A stretch of DNA of 64,000 bases from Akkermansiaceae bacterium (lineage in GTDB: Bacteria > Verrucomicrobiota > Verrucomicrobiia > Verrucomicrobiales > Akkermansiaceae): the NCBI GenBank assembly GCA_903934285.1, contig CAIZNN010000154.1, positions 6,878-70,877 on the forward strand, written 5' to 3'. Shown piece after piece: positions 1 through 64,000 of the stretch. How positions within the stretch are numbered: the first letter of the stretch is position 1; each line of letters begins with the position of its first letter. The notes beneath the pieces were generated by a model. It did no database searches. It had not been told where the DNA came from and was given only the letters and a program-made list of their open reading frames with translations. A program made the translations under genes and the position numbers.

Positions 1-1054
1 TGTCCGCATAATTGAACAACAACTCGCACACCGCGCTCTCGCCATCGCGGCCGGCGCGCCCGGCCTCCTGATAGTATGCCTCCACACTGCCGGGCACCTC
101 GTAGTGGATCACAAAGCGCACGTCCGCACGGTCGATGCCCATGCCAAAGGCATTGGTGGCCACCGCCACATCCGCCTTGCGCTGAATAAACACCTCCTGC
201 GCGCGCTCGCGCTCCGCATCGCTCATGCCGCCATGGTAGGCCACGCATTTGAAGCCCCAACTGGCGAGCGTTTCCGACACCGCCTCGACTTTCTTGCGGG
301 TGGCGCAATACACGATGCCGGTGCGATGGGCGGCGATAACCGCCCGCATCCGCTCGTTTTTCTGTGCCGCGTTATCCACCGCCGTGATGGTCAGTGACAG
401 ATTCGGCCGCGCAAAGCCGCTGACCTGCTCGAAGGGCTCGCGCAGGCCCAGCACGCTGGCGATGTCGTCCCTAACAACCGGGGTGGCCGTGGCGGTCAGC
501 GCCACGCACTGCGGGCGCCCCAACTTATCCAGGGCCTTGCCCAGGCGCAGGTAATCGGGGCGGAAATCATGGCCCCACTGGCTGAGGCAATGGGCCTCAT
601 CGACGGCAAACAACGAGACTTCCACCCCGGCCAGGGCGTTGAGAAAGCTCTCGGCGCGAAACCGCTCCGGGGCGATATAGACCAGCTTGTAGGACCCGTT
701 GCGCATGCCATCCAAGCGTTCCTTTTGCTCCGGCCACGACAAGGTGGAATTGATCATGGTCGCCTCGATGCCGCGCGCCACCAGCGCATCGACCTGGTCC
801 TTCATCAGGGCGATGAGCGGAGAAATGACCAAAGTCACGCCACTGAAACACAGCGCCGGAATTTGAAAGCACAGCGATTTGCCGCCGCCGGTGGGCATCA
901 CCACCAAGCCGTCGCGCCCAGCCACGATTTCGGCAATGACTTCCTCCTGCCCATCCAAAAACCCCGAAAACCCGAAATGCTGCTGCAGCGCCTGATGCGG
1001 CGTCATCACCAACGGCCTGGTGGCGGGAACGGGAGTGGCTGCGGCATCGCTCAT
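1..1054 (-). CDS. recQ: ATP-dependent DNA helicase RecQ, 5' part; runs off the window start
   Basis: Manual translation of the minus strand gives [41 protein letters not shown] and [18 protein letters not shown]. In-frame ATG at 1054 or 1006. Missing from the ORF track because it has no stop in the window. Confidence 0.95.
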
Positions 1055-1103
1055 GGCTTGCACAAATGAACATCAGCCCCCCCACCCATGTCAACTCCGG
1101 ACC

Positions 1104-2396
1104 TCATCCCACCAAGTCACCAATGGAACCGAAATCCGGCGCGAACAAGCGCTTGTAGGTGCGCGCGGCGTAGCCATCGGTCATCCCGGCGAGAAAATCG
1201 CACACCAAGCGCGCCCGCGCCGCAGCGTCGGCAGCGGCGGCGATTTCCGCCGCGGTGTCGGCCGGCAACAGCTGGAAATCCTGGCCATCGATGCGTCCCT
1301 GCGCGATGTAGCGCTGGGCCAGCACCTCCCACAATTGGCGCAGCATCCGGCTGCCCTTGTGCTCGAGTTGTTTCAATTGCGGCGATAGAAACACCACCTC
1401 AAAGGCCAAGCGCTTGAACAAGGCCGACTCGGCCCGCACCGCCTCGTCCACCACCAGGCGGAAGCCATATCGATGGGTCACCCCACTGAGGAAATTCACC
1501 ACGGGCTGCAACGTTGCGGCCTGGATGTAGCGGCCGATGCGTTTGCCCACAAACGGATCGACCCGGTGCTGGCGGATTGCCCGCAGCAACTCGCCCAGCG
1601 AGCTGCCCTCACCGGTTGGCTCGCCCTGGCGTTCCGCCCACGCCTCGATTTTTTCAAGGTGCAGAAAACCGGCCCGCACGCTGTCCGACAAATCGTTGAG
1701 CGAGTAGGCCGTGTCATCCGCCCAATCCATCACCTGGCATTCGATCGACTTGCACGCATCGCGCAGCACACCCGGCCGCAACGCGGCGGGAAACCCATGA
1801 CCGCCCATCGCCCACTCGAGGTGGCCACGCTGGTCGTCATACAAAAAGTGATGCGCCGGCGGGGTGCCGGTGGCGGCCCCCAGCTCGCTCCACAACGATT
1901 TGTATTTGAGCACACCATCCAGAAACGCCCGGCTCGGATCCATGCCGCGGCGGGTCGCGGAGAAAATCCGCTCCGTTAGAATCCGCAGCGTCTGGGCATT
2001 GCCTTCGAAGCCGCCCTGCTCGCGCAGCAAATGATTGAGGGTGCGCTCGCCCGCATGCCCAAACGGCGGATGGCCCAAATCATGCGACAAGCAAATCGCC
2101 TCGATCAGGTCCGGATCAATGAAAAAGCCCTCGTCGAGCGGCCCGCCCGGCCGCGTCTGCAGCCAATAGCAAATCGACTTGCCAATCTGCGCCACCTCCA
2201 GCGAATGGGTCAAACGGGTCCGGTAAAAATCATACTCGCCGCTCCAAAACACCTGGGTCTTGTTTTGTAAACGCCGAAACGTCGGCGTATGCAACACCCG
2301 GTCCCGGTCTATCTGAAACGCCGTGCGGTAATCTGCTCCCACACCCGTCGCCGCGCGCCGCTCCACATCAAATTCGCCGTAAAATCCGTTCAGCAT
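1104..2396 (-). CDS. dgt: Deoxyguanosinetriphosphate triphosphohydrolase (dGTPase, HD family)
   Basis: DRDRVLH..FRRLQNKTQV, RTRLTHSLEVAQIG, HDLGHPPFGHAGE, FEGNAQTLR and DDTAYS motifs. ATG 2396 chosen because a -10 element lies 7 nt upstream. Confidence 0.95.
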   Translation of the reverse strand: MLNGFYGEFDVERRAATGVGADYRTAFQIDRDRVLHTPTFRRLQNKTQVFWSGEYDFYRTRLTHSLEVAQIGKSICYWLQTRPGGPLDEGFFIDPDLIEAICLSHDLGHPPFGHAGERTLNHLLREQGGFEGNAQTLRILTERIFSATRRGMDPSRAFLDGVLKYKSLWSELGAATGTPPAHHFLYDDQRGHLEWAMGGHGFPAALRPGVLRDACKSIECQVMDWADDTAYSLNDLSDSVRAGFLHLEKIEAWAERQGEPTGEGSSLGELLRAIRQHRVDPFVGKRIGRYIQAATLQPVVNFLSGVTHRYGFRLVVDEAVRAESALFKRLAFEVVFLSPQLKQLEHKGSRMLRQLWEVLAQRYIAQGRIDGQDFQLLPADTAAEIAAAADAAARARLVCDFLAGMTDGYAARTYKRLFAPDFGSIGDLVG

Positions 2397-2547
2397 CGCC
2401 ACCACCCTAGCTTGTGCCCCCCGCCCGCGGCAATCCTTTCCTCACCAGCCTTGCCCTAGTCCTCCGCCACCCGCGCCCGCAACCCACCCCCCAACAAGGA
2501 CGACTCCGCCTTGTCGTGGCACGCCATGACCGGGGTCGCGCGCTGGC

Positions 2548-2808
2548 TTACGCTTGCTCGAGCAACTTTTCCACCTTGCGGATGGTTGTCGCCGTATGCT
2601 TGCCGTTGACCCGCTTGGCACCTTCGAGAACCGCTTTGACTGCGGCCAGAGCGGCCTCGGCAGCTACAAACGATTTTTTGTCGCCGCCGTATTTCTTGTC
2701 GGAGAAATACTTCGTAAACACGGTCCCGGAGCGACTGATCGACAGGCGCCAACCCTGGAACGCGGCGGTTTCGTACGTGAAGCGGGTTAGATTTTTGATC
2801 GATTTCAT
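2548..2808 (-). CDS. Small basic protein, AP2-like DNA-binding domain (86 aa)
   Basis: GWRLSISRSG..FTKYFSDKKYGG..SFVAAEAA resembles bacterial/phage AP2 domains; Lys-rich; host-like codon usage. Confidence 0.6.
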   Translation of the reverse strand: MKSIKNLTRFTYETAAFQGWRLSISRSGTVFTKYFSDKKYGGDKKSFVAAEAALAAVKAVLEGAKRVNGKHTATTIRKVEKLLEQA

Positions 2809-3058: not shown

Positions 3059-3077
3059 CCGGCCTAACCAAGATACC

Positions 3078-4169
3078 ATGTCAACCCCTGTTAAACTGGC
3101 TCGTTTCGAGCTGCCCAACCGCCTCCTCCGCAACGAGGACACCGCCACCGATACCTACGCCCAATTCACCGCCGAACCCTTCGAGCGCGGTTACGGCCAC
3201 ACCATCGGCAATTCGCTGCGCCGCGTGCTGCTCTCCTCGTTGGAAGGCGCCGCCATCACCTCGGTGCGCATCGCCGGGGTGCAACACGAATTCTCCAGCC
3301 TGCCCGGCGTGGTGGAAGACGTCACCGACATAGTGCTCAACCTCAAGAAGGTGAAGTTCCATCACAACGACAAGGAACCGCGCATCCTCTCCATCAAAGT
3401 GGAGAAAGAAGGCGTGATCACCGCCGGCGACATCATCGACGACCACATTTACCAAGTCGTCAACAAGGAGCAAGTCATTTGCGTGCTGGACAAAAAGGTC
3501 AAATTCGACTGCGAGTTTGAAGTGCGGGTTGGCCGCGGATTTTCCACCGGCGATGAAAACAAGCGCAAGGACCAGCCCATCGGCGTCATCGCCATCGACT
3601 CGATCTACTCACCGGTGACCCGGGTCAAATATGCGGTGGACACCACCCGCGTCGGTCAAATGACCGACTTCGACAAGCTCACCCTCGACATCTGGACCGA
3701 CGGTCGCACCTCGCCGCAGGACGCGCTGTTGCAGGCGTCGGCGATTCTGCGCCACCACCTCGACGTGTTCGTCAACTACGACGAAAACGCCGTCGGCTTC
3801 GAAGCCGCCCCGGCCGAATCCAGCGAGGAAAACGCCGCCCTCAAGAAGCTGCTCAACATGTCGGTCAACGAAATCGAGCTGTCGGTGCGCGCCGCCAATT
3901 GCCTCAACAACGCCAATATCACCACCGTCGGCCAGCTCGCCATGAAGACCGAGGCGGAAATGCTCAAGTACCGCAACTTCGGCAAGAAATCCCTCAACGA
4001 AATCAAGGACAAGCTCGTCGAGCTCGGCCTGGGTCTCGGCATGACCTTTGAGCCCGCCCTGCTCACCGGCCCGGGCACCGCCTCGCGCGGACCGCGGCTC
4101 GGGGTTGAAGACGAGGCCCCGGTAGGCCTGGCCGATCTGATCGCACAAAACATCGAAGACGACGAATAA
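3078..4169 (+). CDS. rpoA: DNA-directed RNA polymerase subunit alpha
   Basis: AEPFERGYGHTIGNSLRRVLLSSLEGAAI, HEFSSLPGVVEDV and alpha-CTD ELSVRAANCL..NFGKKSLNEI. Confidence 0.99.
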   Translation: MSTPVKLARFELPNRLLRNEDTATDTYAQFTAEPFERGYGHTIGNSLRRVLLSSLEGAAITSVRIAGVQHEFSSLPGVVEDVTDIVLNLKKVKFHHNDKEPRILSIKVEKEGVITAGDIIDDHIYQVVNKEQVICVLDKKVKFDCEFEVRVGRGFSTGDENKRKDQPIGVIAIDSIYSPVTRVKYAVDTTRVGQMTDFDKLTLDIWTDGRTSPQDALLQASAILRHHLDVFVNYDENAVGFEAAPAESSEENAALKKLLNMSVNEIELSVRAANCLNNANITTVGQLAMKTEAEMLKYRNFGKKSLNEIKDKLVELGLGLGMTFEPALLTGPGTASRGPRLGVEDEAPVGLADLIAQNIEDDE

Positions 4170-11101: not shown

Positions 11102-11201
11102 GGCGCGGGAGTCGGGGGCCGGCGGCGGACCGCTGTCCCGGCTGTCAGGGCCAACCGGCGGGTCGCCTAATACGGTTCGTTTGGCGCTCTTTGATAGGAA
11201 A

Positions 11202-11289
11202 ACAGGCTTCCAGCCTGGGATGGCAGACAGTGCATCCTGCCTGTCCTCCAATGTAACGACAGGCTGGAAGCCCGTCGGCCATGACAGGC
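11202..11289. repeat. REP-like palindromic cluster
   Basis: ACAGGCTTCCAGCCTG (11202-17) and its near-complement CAGGCTGGAAGCCCGT (11260-75, 15/16), plus a GACAG..CTGTC hairpin. Confidence 0.55.
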
Positions 11290-11456
11290 AACCGCAACAA
11301 CAACTGGCCCAACAACGCCAACAACCACAACGGATTCCGCCTGGCACGAGTTCAACCCGGCACGCCCGCTGCGCAGGCCCGAGGCTGACCCGGCCACCGT
11401 CCCGCCCGCGCCGCCACAAGCGGCGTGGCAAAGAGAAGATGCCCGCCCGGTGCTGG
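11290..11456 (+). repeat. DGR template-repeat-like AAC-rich tract plus 135-bp direct repeat, copy 1 (11322-11456)
   Basis: AACCGCAACAACAACTGGCCCAACAACGCCAACAACCACAACGGATTCCGCCTGGCA reads NRNNNWPNNANNHNGFRLA. The last 135 bp recur at 12386-12520 with 3 mismatches. Confidence 0.7.
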
Positions 11457-11572: not shown

Positions 11573-11635
11573 ATGACAACGACGGCGACCTTGAAGAAAT
11601 GGGGGAATGGCTATTGCCTTCTGATTGCCGATTGA
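11573..11635 (+). pseudogene. N-terminal stub of an AbrB/MazE-family antitoxin
   Basis: MTTTATLKKWGNG resembles the MazE/AbrB KWGNS motif; preceded by TTGACA-N17-CATTTT-N6-ATG; cut after 13 codons where a long inverted repeat begins. Confidence 0.55.
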
Positions 11636-11730
11636 TGAATGTTGCTTTTGGATTGTTGAAGTGCGCTTGGTTAGTGCGGCCGCGCGTGGCAAACTCACAT
11701 CACAAATCAACAACCATCAATCGGCAATCA
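11622..11730. repeat. Long imperfect inverted repeat
   Basis: TGATTGCCGATTGATG (11622-37) pairs perfectly with CATCAATCGGCAATCA (11715-30); imperfect pairing continues inward. Confidence 0.8.
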
Positions 11731-20882: not shown

Positions 20883-22553
20883 TTAGGTCGCGGCATCCGG
20901 CAGGCCGAGATGGTCGATGTAACGGTCCTCGAAGGCGGGTTGGAGATTCAGTTCGATGACCTCGATGCGACTGCGCAGCGATTCCATTTCTTCGAGTGCG
21001 CCGCGGTCCAGCAGGGCCAGCAGCGCGCCGGCCAGGGCGGTGTTGCCGACCACCTTGACCTGTGCCTCGGCAAACCCGGGCAAGAGGCCCATGCCGATGG
21101 CATGGGCCACTTCGATGTGCATGCCAAAGCCACCCGCCAGATAGACCCGGCCGATTTGCCGCGCCGAAATGCCGGTCACGTCTAACAATGTGTCGATGCC
21201 CGCGCCGATCGCCGCCTTGGCTTGCAGCAGGTGGGCGATATCGATCTCGCTGATGCGCGGGCCGCAGCCGCCGTGACTGCCCGCCAAGCGGAACGCCAGC
21301 CCGTCGCCATCCTCGATCCGATGCTGTGGCGGCACTTCCAACCAGCGGCGGCGATCAAAGCGCCCGTTGGCTTGAATCAGCCCGCAGGCGCGCCCGGTGG
21401 CGAGGAAATCGACATAAGCGGACCCGCAAATTCCGGCATCTGCCGCGGCGGGTTGGCCGCCGATGGTTTCGATCTCCACGGCAAAGGGTGCCAGCGCCAG
21501 CCGGATGGTCTCGATCGCCCCGGCTTGGGCGCGGGTGCCCGACGACAAGCCCGCCCCCTCAAACGCCGGACCGGCGGCGGTGGCACAACCGACGAGGCGG
21601 CCGTCCACGCACAACACCACCTCGCCATTGGTGCCCATGTCAACTAACAGGCTTGGCGTGAGATCGTAAGTCATGCCGGTGGCATGCACCCCGGCGGTAA
21701 TATCCGCCCCCACATAGGCGGCGAGACCCGGCAACAACTGCAACGGCATGGCTGGATCGAAGCCGCAGGCGGCCAGCCCGATGCCGGCGGCATCCAGCAC
21801 GCGGCCTTCCAGAAAGCGGGCGGTGAAGGGCGCGATTCCCAACGAGGTGGGATCTTCGTCGGCCAGAATGTGCAACATGGTGGTGTTGCCAGCCACCGCG
21901 CCACCGGCCAGGCACGCCGGATCGCGCCCCGCCCGTTCACAGGCCTTTTTCAACAACGGGGCGAGGGTCTCCTCGACCAGCGCCCGCCGCATCGCCTGGC
22001 GCACCGCCGGCGATGAACCCGCGCCGATGCGCGTCAGCACATTGTCGCCAAAGCAAATCTGCGCGTTGAAATCCCCGGCCCGCGACAGCACCTTGCCGGT
22101 GGCCAGTTCGACTAACAAAACGACCACGGTGGTGGTGCCGATATCCACGGCAAAGCCGAGATTGCGCCCCGCCGCGGGCGGAAACAGCGGCGCGATTCCG
22201 AACGGCACATCGATGATGAAAGTCTCACCCACCTGGGGCGCGGCGCCGAGTTGCGCGCGCTCGGGGATTTGCAACACCGCGCGGCCACCGGCCGGCAAGC
22301 GCATCTGGCAGGAGCGAATCAGCCCGCCGCCGGCGGCAACGAGCTCACCGGCGCCATCCACCAGCGCGCCCTCGCGCAATTCCACCATGCAGCCGCGGCA
22401 CCAGCCGCGCTGGCCGCAGCGGGCATTGAGCGGGAAGCCGTGCTGCGCCAACAGGTCGGTTAGGCTGCGCCCGGCCATGGCGGCGGGGATCTCCAAACAG
22501 TGGCGCTGCTTTGTGGCGCCGTCTTCTAACACGATTAACTGTGCATGTTTCAT
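20883..22553 (-). CDS. ASKHA-domain reductive activator of corrinoid proteins (RACo/DUF4445) with N-terminal 2Fe-2S domain
   Basis: CGQRGWCRGC..C ferredoxin motif, AVDIGTTTV, AGNTTMLH, YVGADITAG, DMGTNGEVVL, ATAAGPAFEG, GICGSAYVD and YLAGGFG. Confidence 0.9.
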   Translation of the reverse strand: MKHAQLIVLEDGATKQRHCLEIPAAMAGRSLTDLLAQHGFPLNARCGQRGWCRGCMVELREGALVDGAGELVAAGGGLIRSCQMRLPAGGRAVLQIPERAQLGAAPQVGETFIIDVPFGIAPLFPPAAGRNLGFAVDIGTTTVVVLLVELATGKVLSRAGDFNAQICFGDNVLTRIGAGSSPAVRQAMRRALVEETLAPLLKKACERAGRDPACLAGGAVAGNTTMLHILADEDPTSLGIAPFTARFLEGRVLDAAGIGLAACGFDPAMPLQLLPGLAAYVGADITAGVHATGMTYDLTPSLLVDMGTNGEVVLCVDGRLVGCATAAGPAFEGAGLSSGTRAQAGAIETIRLALAPFAVEIETIGGQPAAADAGICGSAYVDFLATGRACGLIQANGRFDRRRWLEVPPQHRIEDGDGLAFRLAGSHGGCGPRISEIDIAHLLQAKAAIGAGIDTLLDVTGISARQIGRVYLAGGFGMHIEVAHAIGMGLLPGFAEAQVKVVGNTALAGALLALLDRGALEEMESLRSRIEVIELNLQPAFEDRYIDHLGLPDAAT

Positions 22554-23290
22554 GGTTGGTTCTTGAGGGGGTCGGCGCGCACGATGGCGGCGTCCGGGGA
22601 ATGGCCGAGTTGTTGGCCGGGCGCAATGATTTGATAGCGCTGGTCATCCCAGGGCCCCCAGATCAAATCCCGCAACAACGCCAGATCGCCCTGGAGGTGC
22701 TCGAAGGTCCAGCCCAGATCCTGAGCGCAGGCCTGGGTGTAGGCCGCCTCGCGCGGGCCGGCGGCGGTGCCCAGATCGATGAAGGCGGCCGTATCGTAGT
22801 TGCTCCACATCTCCTGCTCGCTCTCGATGAGAAACTCGACATCCTCCGGCTCGAAGCGCTCCGCCAAACTCTCCTTGAGAAATGCCAGCCGGTCCGGTCC
22901 CGGCACGCGCCGGGCCAGGTTCCATCCCGGCGTGTAATAGTAACAGCCCGGGCAGGCCTCCTGCCTGCGGGCGAATTCCTCCTTGCTGCCCAGAAAAATC
23001 GCCCGGCAATCATGCGCGCGCGGAATGACCAGACGGTGGCGCCGGGTGTGCAAGCCGACCGTGCCACAGCCGCACAAGCCATACACTAACACGATCGCCT
23101 CGATGTCATCGCGCGCGTCGAGTTCCGTCACGGCCTGCTGCAGGATGCCGCGCATCACCTCCGGCCGGTCGTGCAGGGCGATTTCAAAAACCCGTTGCTC
23201 GATGATGTGGCTGGCACCCGCCGTGACCAGGGCGAGTTCGGGTTCAAACACATCACAGATCAGCAAGGCGATGGGAGGGGGCGGGTTCAT
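22550..23290 (-). CDS. DUF1638 family protein
   Basis: IALLICDVFEPE, LHDRPEVMR, VLVYGLCGCGTVGL, IPRAHDCRAIFLGS and YYYTPGW; this family typically neighbours RACo. Confidence 0.85.
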   Translation of the reverse strand: MNPPPPIALLICDVFEPELALVTAGASHIIEQRVFEIALHDRPEVMRGILQQAVTELDARDDIEAIVLVYGLCGCGTVGLHTRRHRLVIPRAHDCRAIFLGSKEEFARRQEACPGCYYYTPGWNLARRVPGPDRLAFLKESLAERFEPEDVEFLIESEQEMWSNYDTAAFIDLGTAAGPREAAYTQACAQDLGWTFEHLQGDLALLRDLIWGPWDDQRYQIIAPGQQLGHSPDAAIVRADPLKNQP

Positions 23291-24060
23291 ACAGTTGGAT
23301 CAATGGCTTGAGAAATGGCGTTGAGCTCCCCGTTGCGGGCTTGGTCGCGGTATTGTTTCGGGGTCATGCCGCGCAGCGCCCGGAACACATGAGTGAGATA
23401 ACTCTGGTCGCAAAACCCGCAGTCCGCCGCAATCTCCGCCAGCGACTGCGCGGTCTGAATCAGCAATTCACAGGCCGCCTGGACCCGCACCTCGCGCAAC
23501 AACTCCACGAACGAACTGCCGGTGCGCTCCTTGAGCAATTGCGTGAGATGGCCGGGGGAAATCCCAACGTGGCGGGCCAACTCGGTGCGGGTCAGTTCGC
23601 GCGCCATGTGCTGGCGCATGAAGCGCAGGGTGGCGGTGACGTACACGGGCACCTCGGACCGTTGTTGCAGTTCCATCGCCGTGAAAATGCGCTCCAGCGT
23701 CCCGCGCAACCACGCCGCCAGCGCCTCGTCGTCATCAATCTCCGCCAATTCCGCCAGATGGGAGAAATGCATGCCTAACAATTCCGTCTGGGACGCGCCG
23801 GCCTCCACCGCGGCGCGGGAAATCATCACCACCAACTCCAACAACAGTCCCTTGAGCAGTTCGTTGCGTTCCTCGCCCGCGCTGTAAATGTGCACCAGCA
23901 GGTGATTGATGATGCGCCGCGCCTCGCGGCGGTCGCCGAGCTTGATGGCCGCCAGCAAGCCCGGCTCCTGGTACAAATAAAACTCCCGGATCCGGTCAAA
24001 TGGATGCGCCTTGGTCGGGGCCATCGCGGGAAAATCGTTGCGGTTAGTCCGGGCGCTCAT
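23287..24060 (-). CDS. AraC-family transcriptional regulator
   Basis: C-terminal double HTH (ELARHVGISPGHLTQLLK..IAADCGFCDQSYLTHVFR..GMTPKQYR). Start 24060 or 24024. Confidence 0.9.
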   Translation of the reverse strand: MSARTNRNDFPAMAPTKAHPFDRIREFYLYQEPGLLAAIKLGDRREARRIINHLLVHIYSAGEERNELLKGLLLELVVMISRAAVEAGASQTELLGMHFSHLAELAEIDDDEALAAWLRGTLERIFTAMELQQRSEVPVYVTATLRFMRQHMARELTRTELARHVGISPGHLTQLLKERTGSSFVELLREVRVQAACELLIQTAQSLAEIAADCGFCDQSYLTHVFRALRGMTPKQYRDQARNGELNAISQAIDPTV

Positions 24061-24186
24061 GGTCCTGAATGAGGAGGCACGCCCCGGCCACCGCGGGATG
24101 GCTTGGTCGCGCCTGGGTGGAGGCGCCGGCAACGGCAGGATGAGAGGCGATCATGGCTGGGTTCGCGATCGTGGCATGCGGGCGGA

Positions 24187-25614
24187 TCACAGAATCGCCC
24201 CGGGGCAGTAGGCGGCCGCCGCCGGACTGGCCGCCTCGAGTTTCCTAACATCCATGGCGAACCTGGCGATTTGCGCCTGCGCGGCGCCGACCGCGCGCTC
24301 GGCGCTGCTGCCGCGGGCGACCACCGCGTCGAGGGTGGCGCGGGAGAGGCCGAGGCGGGGGTCGGCGGCCAGCCGCTCGATCAGATTGTTGTGCTGCACG
24401 GTGCCGTGGCGCAGGTCGCGCACCGTGGCGATGGCGTGTTCCTTGATGACTTGGTGGGCGGTTTCGCGGCCGACGCCGGCTTTGACCGCCTCCATCATGA
24501 TGGAGGTGGTCATCAGAAACGGCAGATAGCGCTGGGTTTCCGCGGCGAGCACCGCCGGCCACGCGTCCATCTGCTCCAGAATCGTTAGAAAGGTCTCCAG
24601 CAGCCCGTCGCTGGCGAAAAACGCGTCGGGCAGCATCACCCGCCGCACCACCGAGCAGGAAACGTCGCCCTCGTTCCACTGGTCGCCGGCGAGGCCCGCC
24701 GCCATGGTTAGATAACCTTTCAGGATGACATGGAAGCCGTTGACCCGTTCGCACGAGCGGGAGTTCATTTTGTGCGGCATGGCGCTGGAGCCCGTCTGGC
24801 CCGGCGCAAACCCCTCGCTGGCCGTCTCATGGCCGGCCATCAGCCGCAGCGTCTTGCAAAACGACGAGGGCGCCGAGGCCAGCTCGGTGAGGGTGGTGAC
24901 CACCCGCAAATCCAGCGAGCGGGGATAGACTTGGCCGACGTTGGTCCACACTGCGGGCATGGCCAGGTGCGCCACCACGCGTTGTTCGAGCGCGGCGACT
25001 TTGTCCGCATCGCCATCGAACAACGACAGCTGGTCGAGCTGGGTGCCCACCGCGCCCTTCAAGCCGCGCACCGCATAACCGGCGATGACGGTATCGAGCG
25101 CGGCCAGCGAACCTAACAACTCATCGCCGAACATCGCCACCCGTTTGCCCAGGGTTGTCGGTTGCGCCGCCACGTTGTGGGTGCGCGCGGTAATGACCCA
25201 GTCGGCCCACAACTCGGCGCGCTGGCGCATGCGGCTCAGGGCCGCCACGGTTTTGCCGCGGATCAGTTGCAGCGAGCGATACACCTGCAGTTGCTCGACG
25301 TTTTCGGTTAGATCGCGCGAGGTCAGTCCTTTGTGCACCTGCTCCTGGCCCGCCAGCGCATTGAATTCCTCAATCCGCGCCTTGACATCATGCCGGGTGA
25401 TTTTCTCCCGCGCCATGATCGAGGCGGTATCCACCTGGTCCTTGACCCGCTCATAGGCGGCGATCGCCTCGGCGGACACCGCCAGGCCCAGTTCGCGTTG
25501 TGCTTTGAGCACCGCGAGCCAGAACTCACGTTCCAGCACGATGCGGCCCTCGGTGGACCAGATCGCCTGCATGGCAGGGGAGGCGTAGCGTTCGGCAAGG
25601 ATGTTGGGAATCAC
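24187..25614 (-). CDS. purB: Adenylosuccinate lyase
   Basis: MIPNILAERYAS, ITRHDVKARIEEF, HKGLTSRDLTENV, ARTHNVAAQPTT and GSSAMPHKMN; promoter TTGTCA-N17-TAGGTT-N6-GTG. Confidence 0.96.
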   Translation of the reverse strand: MIPNILAERYASPAMQAIWSTEGRIVLEREFWLAVLKAQRELGLAVSAEAIAAYERVKDQVDTASIMAREKITRHDVKARIEEFNALAGQEQVHKGLTSRDLTENVEQLQVYRSLQLIRGKTVAALSRMRQRAELWADWVITARTHNVAAQPTTLGKRVAMFGDELLGSLAALDTVIAGYAVRGLKGAVGTQLDQLSLFDGDADKVAALEQRVVAHLAMPAVWTNVGQVYPRSLDLRVVTTLTELASAPSSFCKTLRLMAGHETASEGFAPGQTGSSAMPHKMNSRSCERVNGFHVILKGYLTMAAGLAGDQWNEGDVSCSVVRRVMLPDAFFASDGLLETFLTILEQMDAWPAVLAAETQRYLPFLMTTSIMMEAVKAGVGRETAHQVIKEHAIATVRDLRHGTVQHNNLIERLAADPRLGLSRATLDAVVARGSSAERAVGAAQAQIARFAMDVRKLEAASPAAAAYCPGAIL

Positions 25615-39504: not shown

Positions 39505-42480
39505 ATGCCACGTCAACCTCCTTGGTCCGGCTTCATCCTGCCCGCGGTGCTCTTCATTGTCTCCGGTTTGCTCATCCTGGCGCTCGGCCTCCTCCTCGTC
39601 GTCGCCCTCGAACGCAGCACCGCGCGCTCCGGCGTCGATTACCAGCGCGCCGATCTCGCCGTCCGTGCCGGCCTTGCGGAGGTCACCGCCAGCCTTGCCG
39701 AAGCCACCTCTAACGATACCTTCATCATCCTCCAAGCCACCCGCACCCAACCTATCCATGCCGGCCACGACCCCGCGCCCTGCCTGTTTCTCGCCCATGG
39801 CACAACCACCCCTGGCAACTCGTTGTCTTTCCATTACCTGCCGCTCTTCAGTGCCACCGCCCGCCCCCCCGACTCCTCGCGCCTCACCGCGCCGCAAATC
39901 GAGCCTCTCGTCACTGCCGGACCTGCCGCCGCCATCGATCTAACCACCCTGCCGTACCTCGATGCGGTGCGTCTCGCCTGGATCCCCATCCACAACGACA
40001 AGCAACAACTCGTCGCACGTTACGCGTTTTGGATCGAAGACCTCCAAGCCAAACTTGACCCGCAAATCGCAGGCAATGCCGCAGGCCCCAATGGCAGCCA
40101 TGCCGGCAGCCCGTGGCCGTGCCCCGCGCCTGCGCTCAATCCCTGCCCGGCTCAGCCCGCTCTCGATCGCCTCGCCCTCTATGCCATCGATCCCGCCTCC
40201 ACCGCCGCGCTTCCCGGCCCTCTGGCAAAAACCTTGATCGCCAACAGGCCAACCCTGGTTTCCCCGGACTCGCTGCTCGCCGCCGCCGCCATCCAACCGC
40301 CGCTGACCCGCGACGCCGCCGGCCACCTGGCCGACCCGACGGCCCGCGCCGTCGAGGAAAACCTAACAACGATGGTGCTGCCCTACCTGGAACAACCCCG
40401 CGTCCCCGTGCTGGCTGGCATCAATGCCGCGGTGGTCGGCGCGGCCAAACTCAACCTCAACGCCCTGCTCGCCAAGGGCGCGGCCGGCGTCGAACCGATG
40501 GCGGCTTTCATCCAACGCGCCCTGCCGGACTTTGCCTCCCGCCAGGGCGGGTTCCCCGATGCCTATCTGCAAACCCTCGCCGCCAATGCCATCGATTACG
40601 CCGACGCAGATTCCCGATCCACGCTGGTTGCCGGCAGCCACCGCGGGCTCGACGGCTTTCCGCTCATCAGCGAAGTGGTGCTGCAGGTCCGTTTCCTCGG
40701 CCAACAGTTAGTCGGCGGCCGCCGCATCCTCAACTGGCACTTCCGCTTGTTTGCCGAACTCTGGAACATGACTAACCAAGACGTCAGCGGCGTCACCCGG
40801 CTCAGTTATGAAGTGGCGCTGCCGATGGAAGGGATTGGCGCCGGCACCGGTTCGAGACGCTTCGATGACCCGGCGCTGCTCAATGATCCCGCCAGGACCA
40901 CCCACCAACTCACCCAATTCGACGGCAAATTCTGGTCGCCCGAAATCGCCGTGGCGCTCCAGCCCAATGAATACAAGTGCTTTGAATTCGCCGCTGTCGC
41001 CTACACCCTCGATGTCGGCCCCGCCGGCATCGCCGTGGCGGACCACTTCAGCCTAACCGAACCGGAGGGGGCGGCCGGGGTCTCATTGCGCTGGAACGGC
41101 CAGGAGGTCGATCGCGTGGCCGCCATCATCCGCCAGAAAAAGGGCCTCGAGTTCGAGCTTTCCCAACCGCGATACTCATCCAAGGCGACGGTCGCCGCAC
41201 TCGGGCTGGGGGCTTATGGTTCGGAAATCGACAACCCTGGCGACCCGCGCATCTCCTACTATCTGCGTAGTACCCCACTCGCCGAGAACGCCAACCCCGA
41301 AAACTCCAGCCCCAACCGCCGCAACATCCGCCGCAGCACCATCTATGATGCCGACGGGCCCCGCAAACCCAAGACCTATGGCAGGGTGCTGCCCTCGGAG
41401 TGGCCCGACGGCGGCCACGATTCCGCCGTCGGCTCGTGGCCGATCACGCACGACGATGCGGTGTGCCCCACCGATGCCAAATACCACTGGCCGCAAACTC
41501 CCCTCGCCGCCCAAGCGCCGCAGCGCCTGTCCAATGCCGGTCGCTTCTTCAGCGTCACCGAACTCGGCCGCACCTACGACCCGCTGCTGTGGCAGCCCAC
41601 CTACGACACCCCGCAGGATACCGCCGCCATCCGCACCGGCCTGATGCCCGCCAGTCGCGTTGCCTGGCCCGGGGTGATGCCCGCCAGCCCCGCCAGTGCC
41701 AACCACGGCGGCGGCAATTCACTGCGCATCGGACGGCCGGAACACGCGGCTTTTGATTCACCGGGCAAGCGCGCCGTCTATCTGCTAGACATGTTCCACG
41801 CCGGCCAGCCGCGCTCCGCCGATCCCGCGCTGCGCGAGGGCGCGCTGGTGGAAATCCGCGGCCACGTGAACCTCAACACCGCCACCACGGGCACCTTGCG
41901 GGCGCTTGCCGCCGGGGCTCTCGGCCAGGATCCCTTGCTGGCGACCGTTCCCGGCACGCTGCACCATCTGGGCGCGCCGCTCATGGCCCCGCCGGCCACC
42001 CTCACCACGCTGTACGCCCCATCCACCGCCTCCCTAACCGAAGCGGACCGCCTCGCCGCTGCCATCCTTCGCGCGCGGCCGTTTGCCAGCGCGTCGCAAC
42101 TCGCCCTCGCCAAGGACCTCGATGGTGGTTACGTCTTCGGCAACCCGGCCGTCTATCAACCCGGTGTCCACCTGCCTAGCAACACCCGCGTCCAGTGGAG
42201 TGATTCCGCCGCCGAGGAAGTCTTCGCCCGCGTCTATGACGCCGCCACCGTCCGCTCGCGCAACTTCCGCGTGTGGATCATCGGCCAGACCATCGCTCCC
42301 CCCAGCGCCACCGCCAGCGCCACCGCCAGCGCCACCGCCGCCGCCGCCGCCGCGCCGCAAGTCCTCGCCGAGGTCCGCAAGGTCTTCACCCTGTTTGCCG
42401 ATCCGGGCCAACGCACCTGCCAGGGCACCATCGATCCCGCCACCTCACACACCACGGTCATCCATGAAAACAACTTCTAG
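39505..42480 (+). CDS. Large PilX/GspK-like protein (Verru_Chthon cassette A-like)
   Basis: GFILPAVLFIVSGLLILAL, RYAFWIED, KLNLN, ELGRTYD, GHVNLNTA and RSRNFRVWIIGQ; about 990 aa. Confidence 0.8.
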   Translation: MPRQPPWSGFILPAVLFIVSGLLILALGLLLVVALERSTARSGVDYQRADLAVRAGLAEVTASLAEATSNDTFIILQATRTQPIHAGHDPAPCLFLAHGTTTPGNSLSFHYLPLFSATARPPDSSRLTAPQIEPLVTAGPAAAIDLTTLPYLDAVRLAWIPIHNDKQQLVARYAFWIEDLQAKLDPQIAGNAAGPNGSHAGSPWPCPAPALNPCPAQPALDRLALYAIDPASTAALPGPLAKTLIANRPTLVSPDSLLAAAAIQPPLTRDAAGHLADPTARAVEENLTTMVLPYLEQPRVPVLAGINAAVVGAAKLNLNALLAKGAAGVEPMAAFIQRALPDFASRQGGFPDAYLQTLAANAIDYADADSRSTLVAGSHRGLDGFPLISEVVLQVRFLGQQLVGGRRILNWHFRLFAELWNMTNQDVSGVTRLSYEVALPMEGIGAGTGSRRFDDPALLNDPARTTHQLTQFDGKFWSPEIAVALQPNEYKCFEFAAVAYTLDVGPAGIAVADHFSLTEPEGAAGVSLRWNGQEVDRVAAIIRQKKGLEFELSQPRYSSKATVAALGLGAYGSEIDNPGDPRISYYLRSTPLAENANPENSSPNRRNIRRSTIYDADGPRKPKTYGRVLPSEWPDGGHDSAVGSWPITHDDAVCPTDAKYHWPQTPLAAQAPQRLSNAGRFFSVTELGRTYDPLLWQPTYDTPQDTAAIRTGLMPASRVAWPGVMPASPASANHGGGNSLRIGRPEHAAFDSPGKRAVYLLDMFHAGQPRSADPALREGALVEIRGHVNLNTATTGTLRALAAGALGQDPLLATVPGTLHHLGAPLMAPPATLTTLYAPSTASLTEADRLAAAILRARPFASASQLALAKDLDGGYVFGNPAVYQPGVHLPSNTRVQWSDSAAEEVFARVYDAATVRSRNFRVWIIGQTIAPPSATASATASATAAAAAAPQVLAEVRKVFTLFADPGQRTCQGTIDPATSHTTVIHENNF

Positions 42481-43373: not shown

Positions 43374-44477
43374 ATGAGACGCGCGCGCTGGCTGGCCCCG
43401 TGGAAGGATTCCGCCGAACGGCCTGTGATTTATCACTGCATCACGCGGGTGGTGGAACGCCGCTTGGCGTTCGGGCAGAAGGAAAAGGAGCAATTCCGCA
43501 CTTACCTGCGGATGTATGAGAATTTTTCTGGGTGCCGGGTGCTGGCGTATTGTTTGATGAGCAACCATGTGCACTTGCTGCTGGAAGTGCCGCCACTGGC
43601 GGAGGGAGGCTTGTCGGACGCGGAGTTGCTGCGCCGGCTGCGAGCGATCTACAACGAGGCGGTCGTGGCCGTGGTGGCCAAGGAGTTGGCGGAGTTGCGG
43701 CAGCGGGTGAGGGACGGCTTGGCGGATGAGTCATTGGTGAGGGAACTGCATGCACGCTATACCTATCGGATGCACGATCTGGGGGAGTTCATGAAAACGC
43801 TGCTGCTGCGCTTCAGTCGGTGGTTCAACACCAGGTACGAACGCACCGGCGCGTTGTGGGAATCGCGCTTCAAAAGCGTGCTGGTGGAGGACGGGTTGGC
43901 GGCGCGGACGATGGCGGCCTACATCGATCTCAATCCGTTGCGCGCGGGGATGGTGACGGACCCGGCGGAGTATCGTTGGAGCAGTTATGGCGTGGCGATG
44001 GGCGGGGGCGCGCGAGGCAATGGCAAGAAGGCACGGGCCGGGTTGGTGCGGGCGCTCATGGCGCACAAGGGCTATCAGGCGGATGCGCGGCATTGGGCGG
44101 GTGAGGTGTCCAAGGACTACCGCATGCTTTTGTTAGCTGAAGGCGCGGAGAAGCTGCAGGAGGTGGTGAGCGAGAGCGGCGGGCGGGAGGTGAAGGTGGT
44201 TAGAAAAGGTATCAGGCAGGAGGTGGCGGCGGCGGAACTGGTGCTGCTGGAGCGGAGCCGGGATGTGGCGCTGGGCAAAATGCTGCGGTATCGGGTGAGG
44301 TATTTCACGGACGGGGCGGTGCTCGGCAGCCGGGCCTTTGTGGATGAGGTGTTCACGTGTTGCCCGGAGCGCTTCGGCACGACACGCAAGGATGGGGCGC
44401 GCAAATTGCGCGGCAGCGGCGCGGCGGCGGCCGGGCGGTTGTGGAGCGTGCGGGACTTGCGCCGGCGGATCGGTTAG
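43374..44477 (+). mobile_element. Y1 (HUH) tyrosine transposase, REP-associated (RAYT)/IS200-like with C-terminal extension
   Basis: YHCITRVVERR, AYCLMSNHVHLLL (HUH), ALWESRFKSVLV and AYIDLNPLRAGMV.DP.EYRWSSY. No terminal inverted repeats seen. Confidence 0.88.
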
Positions 44478-50293: not shown

Positions 50294-52549
50294 CTCGGTG
50301 CGGCGCTTGAGGCGCCGCACCGAGTGGTCCACAAATCCTTCCAGCAGCAAGTCGCCCGCCTGGTCGATGGTTAGGGTGACTGCGCCGCTTAGTGCTTGGT
50401 CGAGCACCTCAATGCCGCTGGCGCGCCAGAACGCGGCTTGTTGGGCGTTGAGCCGTTCTGCGGCTGGAAACGGCTCGTTGGAGGCGATGATCGCCAGGGG
50501 CCGCACCCGTTCGAGAAACGCGTCGCACAGGGAGAGGTCGCTTTGATGGTGGCCGGCGATAATCACATCGGCGCTGAGGTCGCGCGCGCCATCTAACATT
50601 TTAAGCTCGGTGCCCATGCCGGCGTCGCTGGTGAAGAGGATTTTCCAATTCCGCCAGTGGAGCCGATAGATGGCGACGCGGTCATCGGCCAGCGTGACCG
50701 GGTTGTGCGGGTCGGGTGCGTAGAGGATTTCGAGGCGGGCGCCATCCGGCATGGGCAAGGCGGTGGTGGTAGTGGCGGCGGCTTGGAGGGTGCGGATGCC
50801 GGCGGTGGGGGCGTGATTGAGCCATGCCTGATAGGTCGGGCTGCGCGAGCGTGCCACCGGGAGCAAGGCTTGGCGGATGGGAAAGGCGGCCCAGACTTGG
50901 GCGCCGCCGCCGAGGTGGCGGCCATCGGGATGGGTGAGCACCACCGCATCCGGGGTGACGCCGAGTTGCCGCAGGGAGGGCATCACGCGACGCTTGAAGC
51001 CGGAGCGGTCGCCACAATCGAACAACAGCGCGCCATCGGCACCTGCGGCAAAGCATGCGGCGGCGGCACCGTAGTCCAGGGCGTAAACCAGCAGGAATGG
51101 TTGGCCGTGGCCGCGGATGCTGAAATGGCCACCGGGGATGGCGGCCAGGGTGGTGGCGGTGGCGACGCAGGCGTTGGCCACCACGGCATTGGCTTGATTG
51201 AGCCAGCCGGCGGCGCGCGGCGCGATGGGATGCAGTGCGGTAGCCAGCAACGCCACTGCTAACAGCACGAACACCAGCGGCATCAGCGCCAGATTGGCCA
51301 CAATGGCAATCGGGGTGATGAGGCCGAAGTGATAGGCCGTCAGCGGGGTGGAGCCGAGCAATGCGGCGAGCGACACGGCGAGCGATTGAGCCAGGTTTCT
51401 GCGGCATTTGAGCCGGCGTTTTTGCCAGCGGGTCATGAGGGTGGTGGGCAGATAGAGTTCGGGCTGGGCGAGCCAGGCGAAGTAGCGGGAGGCCCAGCTC
51501 GTGCCGAGGGCGATGGCGGCCACCACGCCATAGGAGAGTTGGACGCCCGGCTGAAACAGCAGGTTGCCATTCCACAACAGCACGACGAACAACACCAAGC
51601 CGAGGGCGTTGAGCAAGTCCGGCCGCCGCCGGAACACAAAGGCCCCTAAAAACACCGAGGCCATCCAAGCGGAGCGCAGTGCCGGCGCGCTGTTGCCTGA
51701 AATCCAAGTGTAGCCGAAGATGAATGGCAACAACACCAGCACCGCCCAGCGGCGCGGCACCCCCGCCATCCGCAGCAGCAACCAGGCGATGCTGGCGACC
51801 ATGGCCACATGCATGCCGCTAACCGAAAAGATATGCAGGGTACCGCTGTTGCGGAACACCGCGATCAATTCATCGGCATCCGGCGGGATGTCGCCGATGA
51901 CCACTGCCCGGATGACCATGGCCGCTTGCGAATCGTCCGCCAAGCCGGCTGTCACCGCGGTGCGGAATGCCAGCCGCAGGCGGGCCCCAAACGCTGCCAG
52001 GCGGCCGGTGGTCACTTCGCTGTTGCCCGGGGCGGAGTGAAACACGGCGGCCACGCCCTGGCGGCGCAGCCAAGCGCCGTGATCGAACTCGCCTGGATTG
52101 CGTCGCACCGGCAGCGGCAGGAAATTGCCCCGTGCCCGCAGCCGGGAGCCGGCCACCGGGGTTTCGCCATGGCCTTCCCACCAGACTTTAGCACCGGTTT
52201 GGGGGCCGCTGCGGAGCCTGGCCGGCGCGACCCATGAGCCGTTGTCGCCTTTGCCATCTGCCAACGCCTGGCCATCCACCAGTCCGCCGCCGGACTCCAC
52301 CAAGGCCGTGGCGGCGTGTTCACGCTGGTGGTTGCGCCCGGCAAAAACGCCCACGCTCAGCCCGCCGCAAAGGGCCCAAGCCAAGCCGCGCCGCCAGTTG
52401 CCCAACCAGACGCCGAGCCCCCCGAACGCGCCTGCGGCCAGGAAGCCGGCGGTGAGGGACTGATTGGCCAGCACGAGGCAGCCAGCCATGGCCAGCGCTG
52501 CGGCAAACACCGGTTGGCGTGCGAAAAACGCGGTGAGTCCCGCACGCAT
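50279..52549 (-). CDS. comEC: ComEC/Rec2 competence protein
   Basis: RRNPGEFD, GTLHIFSVSGMHV, SAPALRS, GVQLSY and a C-terminal MBL-like domain (LTHPDGRHLGG, ILFTSD, IIAGHH). Confidence 0.92.
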   Translation of the reverse strand: MRAGLTAFFARQPVFAAALAMAGCLVLANQSLTAGFLAAGAFGGLGVWLGNWRRGLAWALCGGLSVGVFAGRNHQREHAATALVESGGGLVDGQALADGKGDNGSWVAPARLRSGPQTGAKVWWEGHGETPVAGSRLRARGNFLPLPVRRNPGEFDHGAWLRRQGVAAVFHSAPGNSEVTTGRLAAFGARLRLAFRTAVTAGLADDSQAAMVIRAVVIGDIPPDADELIAVFRNSGTLHIFSVSGMHVAMVASIAWLLLRMAGVPRRWAVLVLLPFIFGYTWISGNSAPALRSAWMASVFLGAFVFRRRPDLLNALGLVLFVVLLWNGNLLFQPGVQLSYGVVAAIALGTSWASRYFAWLAQPELYLPTTLMTRWQKRRLKCRRNLAQSLAVSLAALLGSTPLTAYHFGLITPIAIVANLALMPLVFVLLAVALLATALHPIAPRAAGWLNQANAVVANACVATATTLAAIPGGHFSIRGHGQPFLLVYALDYGAAAACFAAGADGALLFDCGDRSGFKRRVMPSLRQLGVTPDAVVLTHPDGRHLGGGAQVWAAFPIRQALLPVARSRSPTYQAWLNHAPTAGIRTLQAAATTTTALPMPDGARLEILYAPDPHNPVTLADDRVAIYRLHWRNWKILFTSDAGMGTELKMLDGARDLSADVIIAGHHQSDLSLCDAFLERVRPLAIIASNEPFPAAERLNAQQAAFWRASGIEVLDQALSGAVTLTIDQAGDLLLEGFVDHSVRRLKRRTESLKQ

Positions 52550-62619: not shown

Positions 62620-62724
62620 GGCGGAGGGGGTGTTTAAGCGAGAGATTAACTAAGCGCAAGAGGAAATAGTGATTTCGCGCGGAAAGTTTTTGAGTCGTGG
62701 CGGTTAACCTAGCGAGGCTTCGCC

Positions 62725-62945
62725 TCAGACCCAAGACCACAAGACCCAAGACGCAAGACGAAGAAATTTGACCTGACGACAACACATTCGTTTTTTCAAG
62801 GACTCTAGATGGGAAAAAGAGAAACCACAGATTACACGGATTCCACAGATAATGAATGAGTTATGAATTATATGGCAGACACCTTTAGGATGAGCCGAAG
62901 AGTAGATAGATTGCGGTCTTATTTTCCGTGTAATCCTCTTTAATC
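62725..62945. repeat. AT-rich relic with short CAAGAC tandem and an inverted repeat
   Basis: CAGACCCAAGACCACAAGACCCAAGACGCAAGACG (62726-60); GATTACACGGA (62830-40) pairs with TCCGTGTAATC (62925-35). Confidence 0.6.
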
Positions 62946-63137
62946 CGCGAAATTTGCCTGAGGTTGTTTGAATTGCAGCCAAACGCTGAGTTCTGGTCCC
63001 TGCCATTCGCGCGAGTGGCGGCGAGCCGCCGCCGCCGCCACGGCCTGCCGCGAGACGCGGCAGCTACTCGCCCGATGCGCAGTGGCCGGTCAAAACAAGT
63101 GACATTTCCCACGCATGGCTTACAAGAGTCGCCCGTC

Positions 63138-64000
63138 ATGGTTGCCACCGCTGAATCAGTCTCGTCATGCGTTGCTCCGCTGGGTTCGTTCGGATTGACT
63201 CCGGGCGGCGTGGTGGTCTGCGAAGATCCGCAAGGCGTCGTGTGGCAGGCCTTTGCGGAGTCCGAACCGGCGGGACTCATTGCCCTCGGTGGCCAAGCCG
63301 CCGCACCCGGTGCCGACGCCGCATGCCTGTTTTGGAAATCGGTGGCCGACCACTTCATCCGCAGTCTGTGCCAAATCCCCGAAACTGGCGATGCGATCCC
63401 CGAGTTGCCGGCGCCGCCCGACGCCGCCACCCTCGCCACCTGGACGCTCAATGCGCCCCCGATGCGTGGCGCGGAATACCTCTCGCCTGACATCCTCCGC
63501 GGGCTGTGGGAGCGCCTTGTGGTGTGGACTCGCGCCCGGGTCGCCAGCGAGAAAAACATTGCCGCGTTCCTGCAGCGCCACGCCCCGGCCTGGTCGCGGG
63601 TCGGGCGCGTCACCCTGCACCTCGCGGAAAACAAGCACGACCCGGAGTGCCCGTTCGCCTTCATGGCCTCCTACGCCTCCGGCCTGTCGCAAGCCGGACG
63701 CCTCACCCAGTTGCCGCTCGGCAAGGCACTCCAGGAATTCAGTGGCGCGAAAAACAAACCCGCCTTGCTCAAACTGCTCACCCCGCTGCATGCCGCCGCC
63801 AAATCCTGCCCGCTGATGACCTCGCTGGTGGACTCCGGCGATGTCTTCCACCCGCTCGCCTGGACCCCGCAGGAAGCCTACGAATTCCTCCGCCACATCC
63901 CTGCCTACGAGGACGCTGGCCTGCTCGTGCGCCTGCCGAATTGGTGGCAAAAACGCGGCACCCGTCCGCAAGTCGCCGCCACCATCGGTGAAAAACATGG
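63138..64000 (+). CDS. SNF2-family helicase, N-terminal part; runs off the window end
   Basis: Manual translation is open to the end: NAPPMRGAEYLS, GRVTLHLAENK.DPECPFAFMASY, LPLGKALQEF, HPLAWTPQEAYEFL, GLLVRLPNWW. This matches the N-terminus of SWIM-associated SNF2 proteins as I recall it. Alternative start 63075. Confidence 0.8.
   Translation, partial: MVATAESVSSCVAPLGSFGLTPGGVVVCEDPQGVVWQAFAESEPAGLIALGGQAAAPGADAACLFWKSVADHFIRSLCQIPETGDAIPELPAPPDAATLATWTLNAPPMRGAEYLSPDILRGLWERLVVWTRARVASEKNIAAFLQRHAPAWSRVGRVTLHLAENKHDPECPFAFMASYASGLSQAGRLTQLPLGKALQEFSGAKNKPALLKLLTPLHAAAKSCPLMTSLVDSGDVFHPLAWTPQEAYEFLRHIPAYEDAGLLVRLPNWWQKRGTRPQVAATIGEKH

Follow-up and report, generated by a model that had tools for sequence, protein, structure and literature searches.

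Genome-wide over-abundance of the asymmetric pentamer CTAAC in a clade of freshwater Luteolibacter-like Verrucomicrobiota

Mechanistic explanations of over-abundant genome words exist for few cases, namely the uptake signal sequence (USS), the DNA uptake sequence (DUS), Chi, and in part the highly iterated palindrome HIP1, and each of these exposed a machine that tells own from foreign DNA. We analyzed the pentamer CTAAC and its complement GTTAG in a 64,000-nt stretch (the window) of contig CAIZNN010000154.1 of an Akkermansiaceae bacterium, in the whole source genome (G000; assembly GCA_903934285.1, 4.80 Mb in 282 contigs, 62.7% GC), and in its relatives. The word is very short and asymmetric, and shows the same genome-wide signature as the known examples in a clade of freshwater Verrucomicrobiota dominated by uncultured members. 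CTAAC belongs among the over-abundant words USS/DUS, Chi, and HIP1, but each of these has at least one defining feature that CTAAC lacks. Literature searches found no published account of CTAAC over-abundance in Verrucomicrobiota. New here are the graded clade, the CTAGC dialect, the missing depletion of precursor words, the short-range interference between copies, the negative results for methyltransferases, and a cultured carrier.

The DUS of Neisseriaceae and the USS of Pasteurellaceae occur, like CTAAC, at about one copy per kb, equally on both strands and in all frames within genes. They are also rare in recently acquired genes and form lineage dialects. The spaced-out copies of CTAAC would fit the idea of one copy per fragment (PMC2397512, PMC2817400). 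Close inverted pairs of DUS are enriched, as in terminators, whereas those of CTAAC are depleted. Chi, for example AGCGG of Bacillus subtilis, resembles CTAAC in being short, non-palindromic, specific to a species group, and over-represented in native or core DNA. The Chi systems employ RecBCD or AddAB, and divergent AddA/AddB-like genes are present in G000, but also in relatives without the enrichment (hereafter the trait). Chi is polarized toward the leading strand, which computational Chi searches use as a defining property (bioRxiv 10.1101/2020.08.13.249359), whereas CTAAC is not polarized beyond composition.

HIP1 (GCGATCGC) and alternate cyanobacterial iterated palindromes share with CTAAC their hyper-abundance, their writing through codon choice, their patchy distribution by lineage, and the existence of replacement words. 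HIP1, which long lacked an explained function and is now linked to transformation (PMC13756078), is a GC-rich palindromic octamer, whereas CTAAC is an asymmetric AT-rich pentamer (5–7 bp). Furthermore, HIP1 has cognate orphan methyltransferases, positional conservation, and a quasi-periodic arrangement (PMC4390886, PMC5861425), but CTAAC has neither an identified methyltransferase nor excess conservation. Very short patch (VSP) repair of Escherichia coli, which enriches CCWGG and depletes CTAG, likewise shows that repair can raise a short word genome-wide without a function. VSP repair corrects a single position (T:G to C:G), which depletes a precursor word, whereas CTAAC is accompanied by neither a depleted precursor nor C5-methyltransferase motifs.

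The copies of the word in the window were counted exactly:

1 to 64000, both strands: CTAAC/GTTAG, 44 copies on the plus strand and 46 on the minus strand, 90 in total

The initial annotation, made from the letters of the window, had estimated 85–90 copies divided evenly between the strands, which agrees with this count. Eleven of its twelve example coordinates were exact, and the copy placed at 46348 should be at 46349. The sibling words CTAAG, CTAAT, and CTAAA occur 7, 8, and 10 times, respectively. In 100 dinucleotide-preserving shuffles of the window, CTAAC/GTTAG was found 28.05 ± 5.7 times with a maximum of 44, and none of the shuffles attained 90; the siblings taken together (CTAAD) were observed 25 times against 77.9 expected. 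The zero-order expectation for CTAAC/GTTAG, previously given as about 70, was recomputed as about 76.

The whole of G000 contains 6307 copies of CTAAC/GTTAG, which corresponds to 1.3 per kb or about one per 760 bases. The zero-order observed/expected ratio (O/E0) is 0.11–0.26 for the siblings, and its median over TA-containing pentamers is 0.43. For a codon-preserving null, synonymous codons were shuffled within each gene in 30 rounds, using crude gene calls from a codon model trained on G000 itself (3265 genes, 77% coding). CTAAC was observed 2393 times in genes against 608 expected (O/E 3.93, z 66), and GTTAG 1918 times against 598 expected (O/E 3.21, z 59). No other pentamer reaches either ratio, and the siblings have 0.17–0.42, so that the proposed enrichment over CTAAG, CTAAT, and CTAAA stands under a codon-preserving null. 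The null is conservative, because the shuffle retains the inflated counts of CTA and TTA codons. In a GC-matched control of the same genus (G015, a complete genome with 60.9% GC, of which 189 kb were sampled), the O/E0 of CTAAC is 0.17 (0.23 copies per kb), and the siblings are as rare as in G000. G000 has therefore acquired the word, without any special avoidance of the siblings. The initial annotation had considered that the excess might be due only to avoidance of CTAAG, which does not agree with a 5.6-fold difference in CTAAC between genomes where the siblings are equally rare.

An O/E0 of only 1.03 and a third-order Markov O/E of only 1.74, which nevertheless ranks CTAAC first among the pentamers of G000, are what could be expected if the word merely followed from codon usage, amino-acid composition, or TA avoidance, or were an assembly artefact. 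We reject this explanation as extremely improbable. The word has z values of 59–66 in the synonymous shuffle, is enriched on both strands relative to genes and in spacers, and exceeds its frequency in a congener of equal GC content 5.6 times. In addition, the trait recurs in metagenome-assembled genomes that were obtained independently in different studies, and also in a type strain in culture.

The clades within the genus were taken from a tree of AddB, as the RpoA/RplQ tree was too poorly resolved. The trait clade forms a gradient, with O/E0 values of 1.39 (G014), 1.24 (G431), 1.03 (G000), 1.0 (G017), 0.96 (G429), 0.82 (G018), 0.81 (G001), 0.71 (G430), 0.64 (G004), 0.52 (G013), 0.41 (G005), 0.32 (G012), 0.22 (G009), and 0.15 (G007). 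The values of the sister clade are mostly 0.08–0.29, and are higher in two small low-GC samples, G006 (0.40) and G003 (0.69). In a sample of 401 genomes of the phylum, the ratio of CTAACA to its reversed control, which misleads as a proxy of the trait in low-GC genomes, is highest in G000 (2.0) and typically 0.05–0.4. The cultured type strain Haloferula chungangensis CCUG 61920 has a moderate trait, with 84 copies of CTAAC in 120 kb compared with 23, 12, and 20 of the siblings. The trait was not seen in a 60-kb sample of L. marinus. L. pohnpeiensis has a CTAACA ratio of 1.05, yet no enrichment over the siblings was found in a small 9-kb sample, and the ratios of L. algae and Luteolibacter sp. 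AS25 are low. No over-abundant word of its own stood out in 180 kb of the non-trait genome G015. The trait belongs to a single clade of freshwater Luteolibacter-like Verrucomicrobiota, within which it is graded. As an aside on the protein used for the tree, AddB is fast-evolving, with 37–64% identity within the genus compared with about 90% for RpoA, and addB is unlinked from addA in the genus and adjacent to it in other families of the order.

The positions of the word relative to genes were determined in G000, where the frame and stop-codon counts rest on the crude gene calls. The frame CTA-ACN contains 1358 copies, NCT-AAC 1034, G-TTA-G 1440 (631 of them as TTG-TTA-G), and GTT-AGN 387, whereas the sibling words have 30–90 copies per frame. 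A further 1778 copies of CTAAC/GTTAG are located in spacers. All four frames that lack an in-frame stop are used, and the word lies on the sense as well as the antisense strand of genes. In the window, 36 copies are in the sense orientation, 29 are antisense, and 25 lie in spacers. The word distorts codon usage, as it draws on codons that are rare elsewhere in G000 and accounts for 42% of all CTA and 60% of all TTA codons, and it biases the context of stop codons. The coincidence with stop codons, previously proposed from examples in the window, is true genome-wide: 224 of 680 TAA stops (33%) have the form C-TAA-C, and 87 of 542 TAG stops (16%) the form GT-TAG. One of these is in the window:

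44473 to 44477, minus strand: GTTAG built by the TAG stop (GT-TAG) of the Y1_Tnp open reading frame (ORF) at 43374–44477

The bias acts on the DNA, and not on protein or RNA. The suggestion of the initial annotation that a sequence-specific process maintains the word at the DNA level is thus borne out by the use of all frames, both strands, and spacers, by the codon-preserving null, and by the absence of the enrichment from the GC-matched congener. It had also listed genes free of the word, and no copy is located inside rpoA (3078–4169) or rplQ.

Sense copies are in moderate excess, at 58% genome-wide, as illustrated by one part of the window:

30215 to 42034, plus strand: 21 plus-strand copies against 5 minus-strand copies

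The ratio of sense to antisense copies in spacers is 359:149 (2.4:1), and in a metagene profile sense CTAAC peaks at −30 to −10 before start codons. A sense copy in a leader is found in front of rpoA:

3064 to 3068, plus strand: leader copy of CTAAC, 10 nt upstream of the rpoA start (3078)

The spacer excess and the leader peak fit leaders that are A-rich, contain more C than G, and lack a Shine-Dalgarno signal. A role of the leader copies similar to that of a Shine-Dalgarno sequence was rejected, since their positions are broad (−24 to −5) and the sense excess matches the composition of C over G. Only 49 of 346 leader copies are stop codons of upstream genes, and some are positioned directly 3′ of a −10-like hexamer. 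As a general property of G000, start codons have no visible Shine-Dalgarno signal, and the leaders are rich in C and A, with 35–55% C at positions −5 to −1. In many genes, a TA-rich −10-like hexamer lies just 6–20 nt upstream of the ATG, in keeping with leaders that are short or missing.

The consensus of the word is Y-CTAAC-A-(A/G), in which the information resides in the five core bases, with weak preferences at positions −1, +1, and +2. The top seven hexamers by z in the synonymous shuffle all contain or overlap the word: TCTAAC (10.8-fold), CTAACA (9.2-fold), and TGTTAG (7.3-fold), followed by TTGTTA, CCTAAC, GTTAGG, and GTTAGA. Relative to G015, the core is enriched 5.6 times and its combinations with any flanking base 3.6–9 times. 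The flanks are almost free of information, and a longer repeat or mobile element that carries CTAAC was therefore rejected. None of the single-substitution neighbors of CTAAC is depleted in G000 relative to G015; for example, the O/E0 values in G000 and G015 are 0.21 and 0.13 for TTAAC, and 0.20 and 0.16 for CTAAT. Every neighbor is at least as common in G000, which argues against depletion of a source word of the VSP or deamination type. CTAGC(A) is also enriched in G014 and G001, and ten sites of G000 align to CTAGC in G001, chiefly as G-TTA-G against G-CTA-G. CTAGC is a dialect at position 4 of the word. The word is recognized as a whole, on the basis of the lack of a depleted precursor, the enrichment with every flank, and the dialect. 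Whatever recognizes it is passed on within the clade with differing strength and acts over time on resident DNA.

Contigs of G000 of at least 10 kb have a median of 1.31 copies per kb (5–95% range 0.85–1.9), and no gene islands or deserts of the word were found in G000, where per-gene counts are near Poisson given the opportunities (chi2/df 1.22). The leading strand was proxied by GC skew alone because the assembly is fragmented (10-kb windows with |GC skew| > 0.02). By this measure there is no replication polarity, with 41.9% of CTAAC on the G-rich strand compared with 33–50% for words of the same composition. Polarity of the kind of Chi or the FtsK-orienting polar sequences (KOPS) was rejected, as composition explains the strand share of CTAAC. 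When genes are grouped by GC content at third codon positions (GC3), a mere proxy for foreign origin, those with GC3 below 0.6 have 0.5 copies per kb and those with GC3 of 0.85–0.9 have 1.66, and this rise runs opposite to the prediction from composition. In seven contigs of G000, CTAAC is no commoner than its siblings, and one of these contigs carries a defence system:

Contig C201, 11864 to 28790 (outside the window): class 1 DISARM with DrmB, DrmA, DrmMI, and DrmD, a complete system on a contig with 59.8% GC

This DISARM locus is probably a recently acquired defence island. The word marks native DNA, and foreign-looking genes are poor in sites.

Some copies in the window appear regularly spaced:

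21182 to 25113, plus strand: eight plus-strand copies, 414–868 bp apart

However, genome-wide spacing is near exponential (coefficient of variation 1.07) and the density of same-strand pairs is flat, and regular spacing was therefore rejected. Pairs of sites were compared with a null that fixes the amino-acid sequence, considering every position where a synonymous choice could form the word, and the per-gene density. Pairs separated by 6–25 bp reach 0.22–0.39 of expectation, alike in the same, convergent, and divergent orientations. At 25–50 bp the values are 0.42–0.52 in all orientations, and beyond roughly 150 bp they are about 1. No longer-range order in pair spacings was seen up to 3 kb. 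The raw counts of inverted pairs CTAAC...GTTAG are enriched at no spacing, and the short-range depletion, in place of enrichment, led us to reject inverted pairs of the attC or terminator type. The resemblance of YCTAAC/GTTAGR to RYYYAAC/GTTRRRY, which we take to be the core sites of integrons, was dropped.

The even distribution over contigs and genes, the occurrence of both orientations, the lower density in foreign DNA, and a short-range interference that is compatible with a protein footprint could all be produced by an abundant nucleoid-associated or chromosome-organizing protein that prefers CTAAC, with selection on the density of its sites in native DNA. However, single sites are not conserved, the interference is gone by about 150 bp and no order follows up to 3 kb, and no candidate protein follows the trait; an AP2-like miniprotein is encoded beside rpoA in 17 of 20 relatives irrespective of the trait. 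We regard this explanation as the least likely of those that involve a cellular process.

The turnover of individual copies was studied in three closer relatives, all of which carry the trait and can be aligned to the window at 78–81% identity. Of the coding sites of G000, 38 of 123 (0.31) are conserved, compared with 0.285 of control pentamers of the same codon phase with A or T at the third position, and 0.265 if the controls contain TA. In intergenic regions, 12 of 35 sites are conserved, as are 106 of 361 controls. CTAAC is not significantly better conserved than the control words in either the coding or the intergenic comparison. All four genomes could be aligned at 75 site positions, of which 47 have the word in a single genome and only 2 in every genome, yet each of the four retains a density of 0.9–1.7 copies per kb. 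The aligned alternatives are chiefly synonymous neighbors, namely CTGAC, CCAAC, CTCAC, and CTAGC, and more distant trait genomes give the same picture of turnover. The genome maintains the density of the word, and not its single copies.

Such turnover is what a sequence-specific repair or mutational bias would leave behind if it created CTAAC from near-cognates, in the manner of VSP repair or the repair proposed for HIP1, with the word itself functionless. Copies are lost about as fast as comparable words and are mostly private, yet the density is kept, as in the replenishment logic of Xu et al. 2018 (PMC5861425). Moreover, the one-transition neighbors CTGAC and CCAAC are the commonest aligned alternatives, and codon choice in the context of the word is near the prediction from base composition (CTA 16.8%, TTA 6.4%). 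However, such a bias would have to create the word from many neighbors and at all five positions, without leaving any neighbor depleted relative to the GC-matched congener, and it would have to raise hexamers and heptamers with CTAAC 3–5 fold over their base-composition expectation. G000 lacks canonical C5 motifs and a PF01555 enzyme, and the depletion of pairs at short range is not expected of an independent mutational process. It is conceivable that repair alone writes the word, but we consider this doubtful.

The reading that we prefer, with a probability of roughly 0.35, is a weak, saturating fixation bias that acts on the whole word and is tied to DNA uptake or recombination. One of the cell's DNA-processing machines would recognize the word on incoming or broken DNA, where it would act as an uptake signal or as a protection signal similar to that of AddAB and Chi. 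Recombination would give alleles with a copy a small advantage in reaching fixation, and a second copy nearby would add little, because the effect would be saturated. A protein may read the word, and recombination or uptake may be the route by which it spreads. In favor of this reading are the signal at the level of DNA, the recognition of the entire word, the graded clade with its dialect, the higher density in native DNA, the upkeep of density in spite of turnover, and the interference at short range. The machines needed are encoded, as ComEC is present in the window (a 757-aa ORF at about 51083–51874 on the minus strand) and AddA/AddB-like genes are present in G000.

Several observations weigh against this fixation bias. 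ComEC is found in 29 of 31 genomes searched across the order, and divergent AddA/AddB-like ORFs, which score below the NCBIfam cut-offs with addA_alphas and addB_alphas as best matches, are found in all 31. Both were therefore rejected as the discriminating reader, since they occur in nearly all genomes with or without the trait. A fixation bias that yields a fivefold enrichment should also protect existing copies, and such protection was seen in neither coding nor intergenic DNA. Conservation is good in true DUS and in HIP1 (PMC2397512, PMC5861425), and stringent in DUS, whereas copies of CTAAC are conserved no better than controls. By the argument made for HIP1 (PMC5861425), unprotected copies favor continual replenishment by biased repair or mutation. 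The core of DUS and USS contains 9–12 informative bases, compared with 5–7 in CTAAC, and a word of 5–7 bp holds too little information for good discrimination between self and foreign DNA. A Chi-like replication polarity is absent, and the short-range interference could instead reflect the cost of clustering rare codons. To our knowledge, neither a receptor or uptake preference for CTAAC nor natural transformation has been documented for this group.

Alternatively, CTAAC could be the target of a methyltransferase, either an orphan or one of the Type IIG, BREX, or DISARM type, with the methylated word favored through an epigenetic or repair role as in HIP1. The abundance of HIP1 follows its cognate methyltransferases (PMC4390886). 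G000 encodes DrmMI, an MmeI-like enzyme, and further N6-methyltransferases, as well as Type I HsdM-like proteins. The A at position 5 of the hexamer YCTAAC presumably fits the site layout of PglX, MmeI, and DrmMI-type enzymes. Two of the candidates are encoded outside the window:

Contig C201: DISARM DrmMI (g191), an Eco57I-type methyltransferase
Contig C155, 118 to 3333 (3.8-kb contig): MmeI-like enzyme (g324), about 1070 aa long and judged by eye to be a type IIL restriction-methyltransferase

The MmeI-like enzyme has homologues at 52–69% identity in trait and non-trait genomes, including the non-trait G008 and G020, whereas G014, with the strongest trait, has only matches at 27–29% and G017 has none. 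Its homologues are patchy across the genus, and one in another family has 66% identity, which suggests a mobile restriction-modification gene. ORFs like DrmMI, of similar size and with the same Pfam match, but weakly similar in sequence, are present in the non-trait genomes G015 and G007, and the DISARM contig is itself poor in sites. A third Eco57I-type enzyme (the g862/g3064 pair) adjoins a small ORF that resembles a PD-(D/E)XK nuclease by eye; this is possibly a type II restriction-modification pair. None of g324, g191, and g862/g3064 follows the trait, and all three were rejected as the reader.

PF01555 (the N4/N6 beta class) has no match in G000, and therefore no Type III Mod is present. 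A regex-based search of the G000 ORFs of 150 aa or more found none with the canonical set of C5-methyltransferase motifs, which we take as moderate evidence. A general regex search for methyltransferases returned false positives for the most part. None of the Eco57I-type enzymes tested follows the trait; the relatives were not searched for PF02384, PF02086, and PF00145. In addition, sites linked to restriction are normally avoided rather than enriched. The model of a methylated word is weakened by these results, and we consider it unlikely, somewhat more so than repair bias. The initial annotation had proposed Type III, Type IIG, or BREX-like methylation coupled to repair and a search of the genome for an orphan methyltransferase. 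The absence of PF01555, of C5 motifs, and of a depleted neighbor, together with the distribution of the Eco57I-type enzymes, leaves the former unsupported, and the latter yielded no candidate that follows the trait.

CTAAC might, rather speculatively, be an undescribed "self word" of 5–7 bases that belongs to a system in several lineages of Verrucomicrobiota, with a reader that is conserved or horizontally shared, such as an uptake receptor, a nuclease that processes DNA ends as AddAB does, or an enzyme of strand-specific nicking or repair. The variation of the trait between sister species and the dialects make a search for the reader by phylogenetic correlation feasible, and Haloferula chungangensis CCUG 61920, as a cultured carrier of the moderate trait, opens the way to bench tests. 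The word can also serve as a marker in the binning of these genomes and help to detect foreign DNA within them.

Among the short words of G000, the most avoided are CTAG (O/E0 0.12), CTAAG/CTTAG (0.11), and TTAA (0.27). GGCGCC and TGCGCA are far rarer in G001 than in G000, which hints at restriction pressures that differ by species. The Y1_Tnp ORF of the window, located at 43374–44477 on the plus strand, encodes 367 aa with an N-terminal Y1_Tnp (IS200/RAYT-like) domain. It has at least seven copies in G431 at 73–78% identity and a single strong match in G430. An 86-aa lysine-rich ORF at 2545–2830 on the minus strand is divergent from rpoA, has no Pfam match, and is located beside rpoA in 17 of 20 relatives; several extra paralogous copies of it are present in G429, G430, and G431 (73–82% nucleotide identity). 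A sequence of about 110–140 bp, found in the window at 11148–11291 and 11621–11730, matches dozens of places in G429, G430, and G431 at 73–91% identity and represents a dispersed repeat family, similar to miniature inverted-repeat transposable elements (MITE) or repetitive extragenic palindromes (REP), that is common to the clade.

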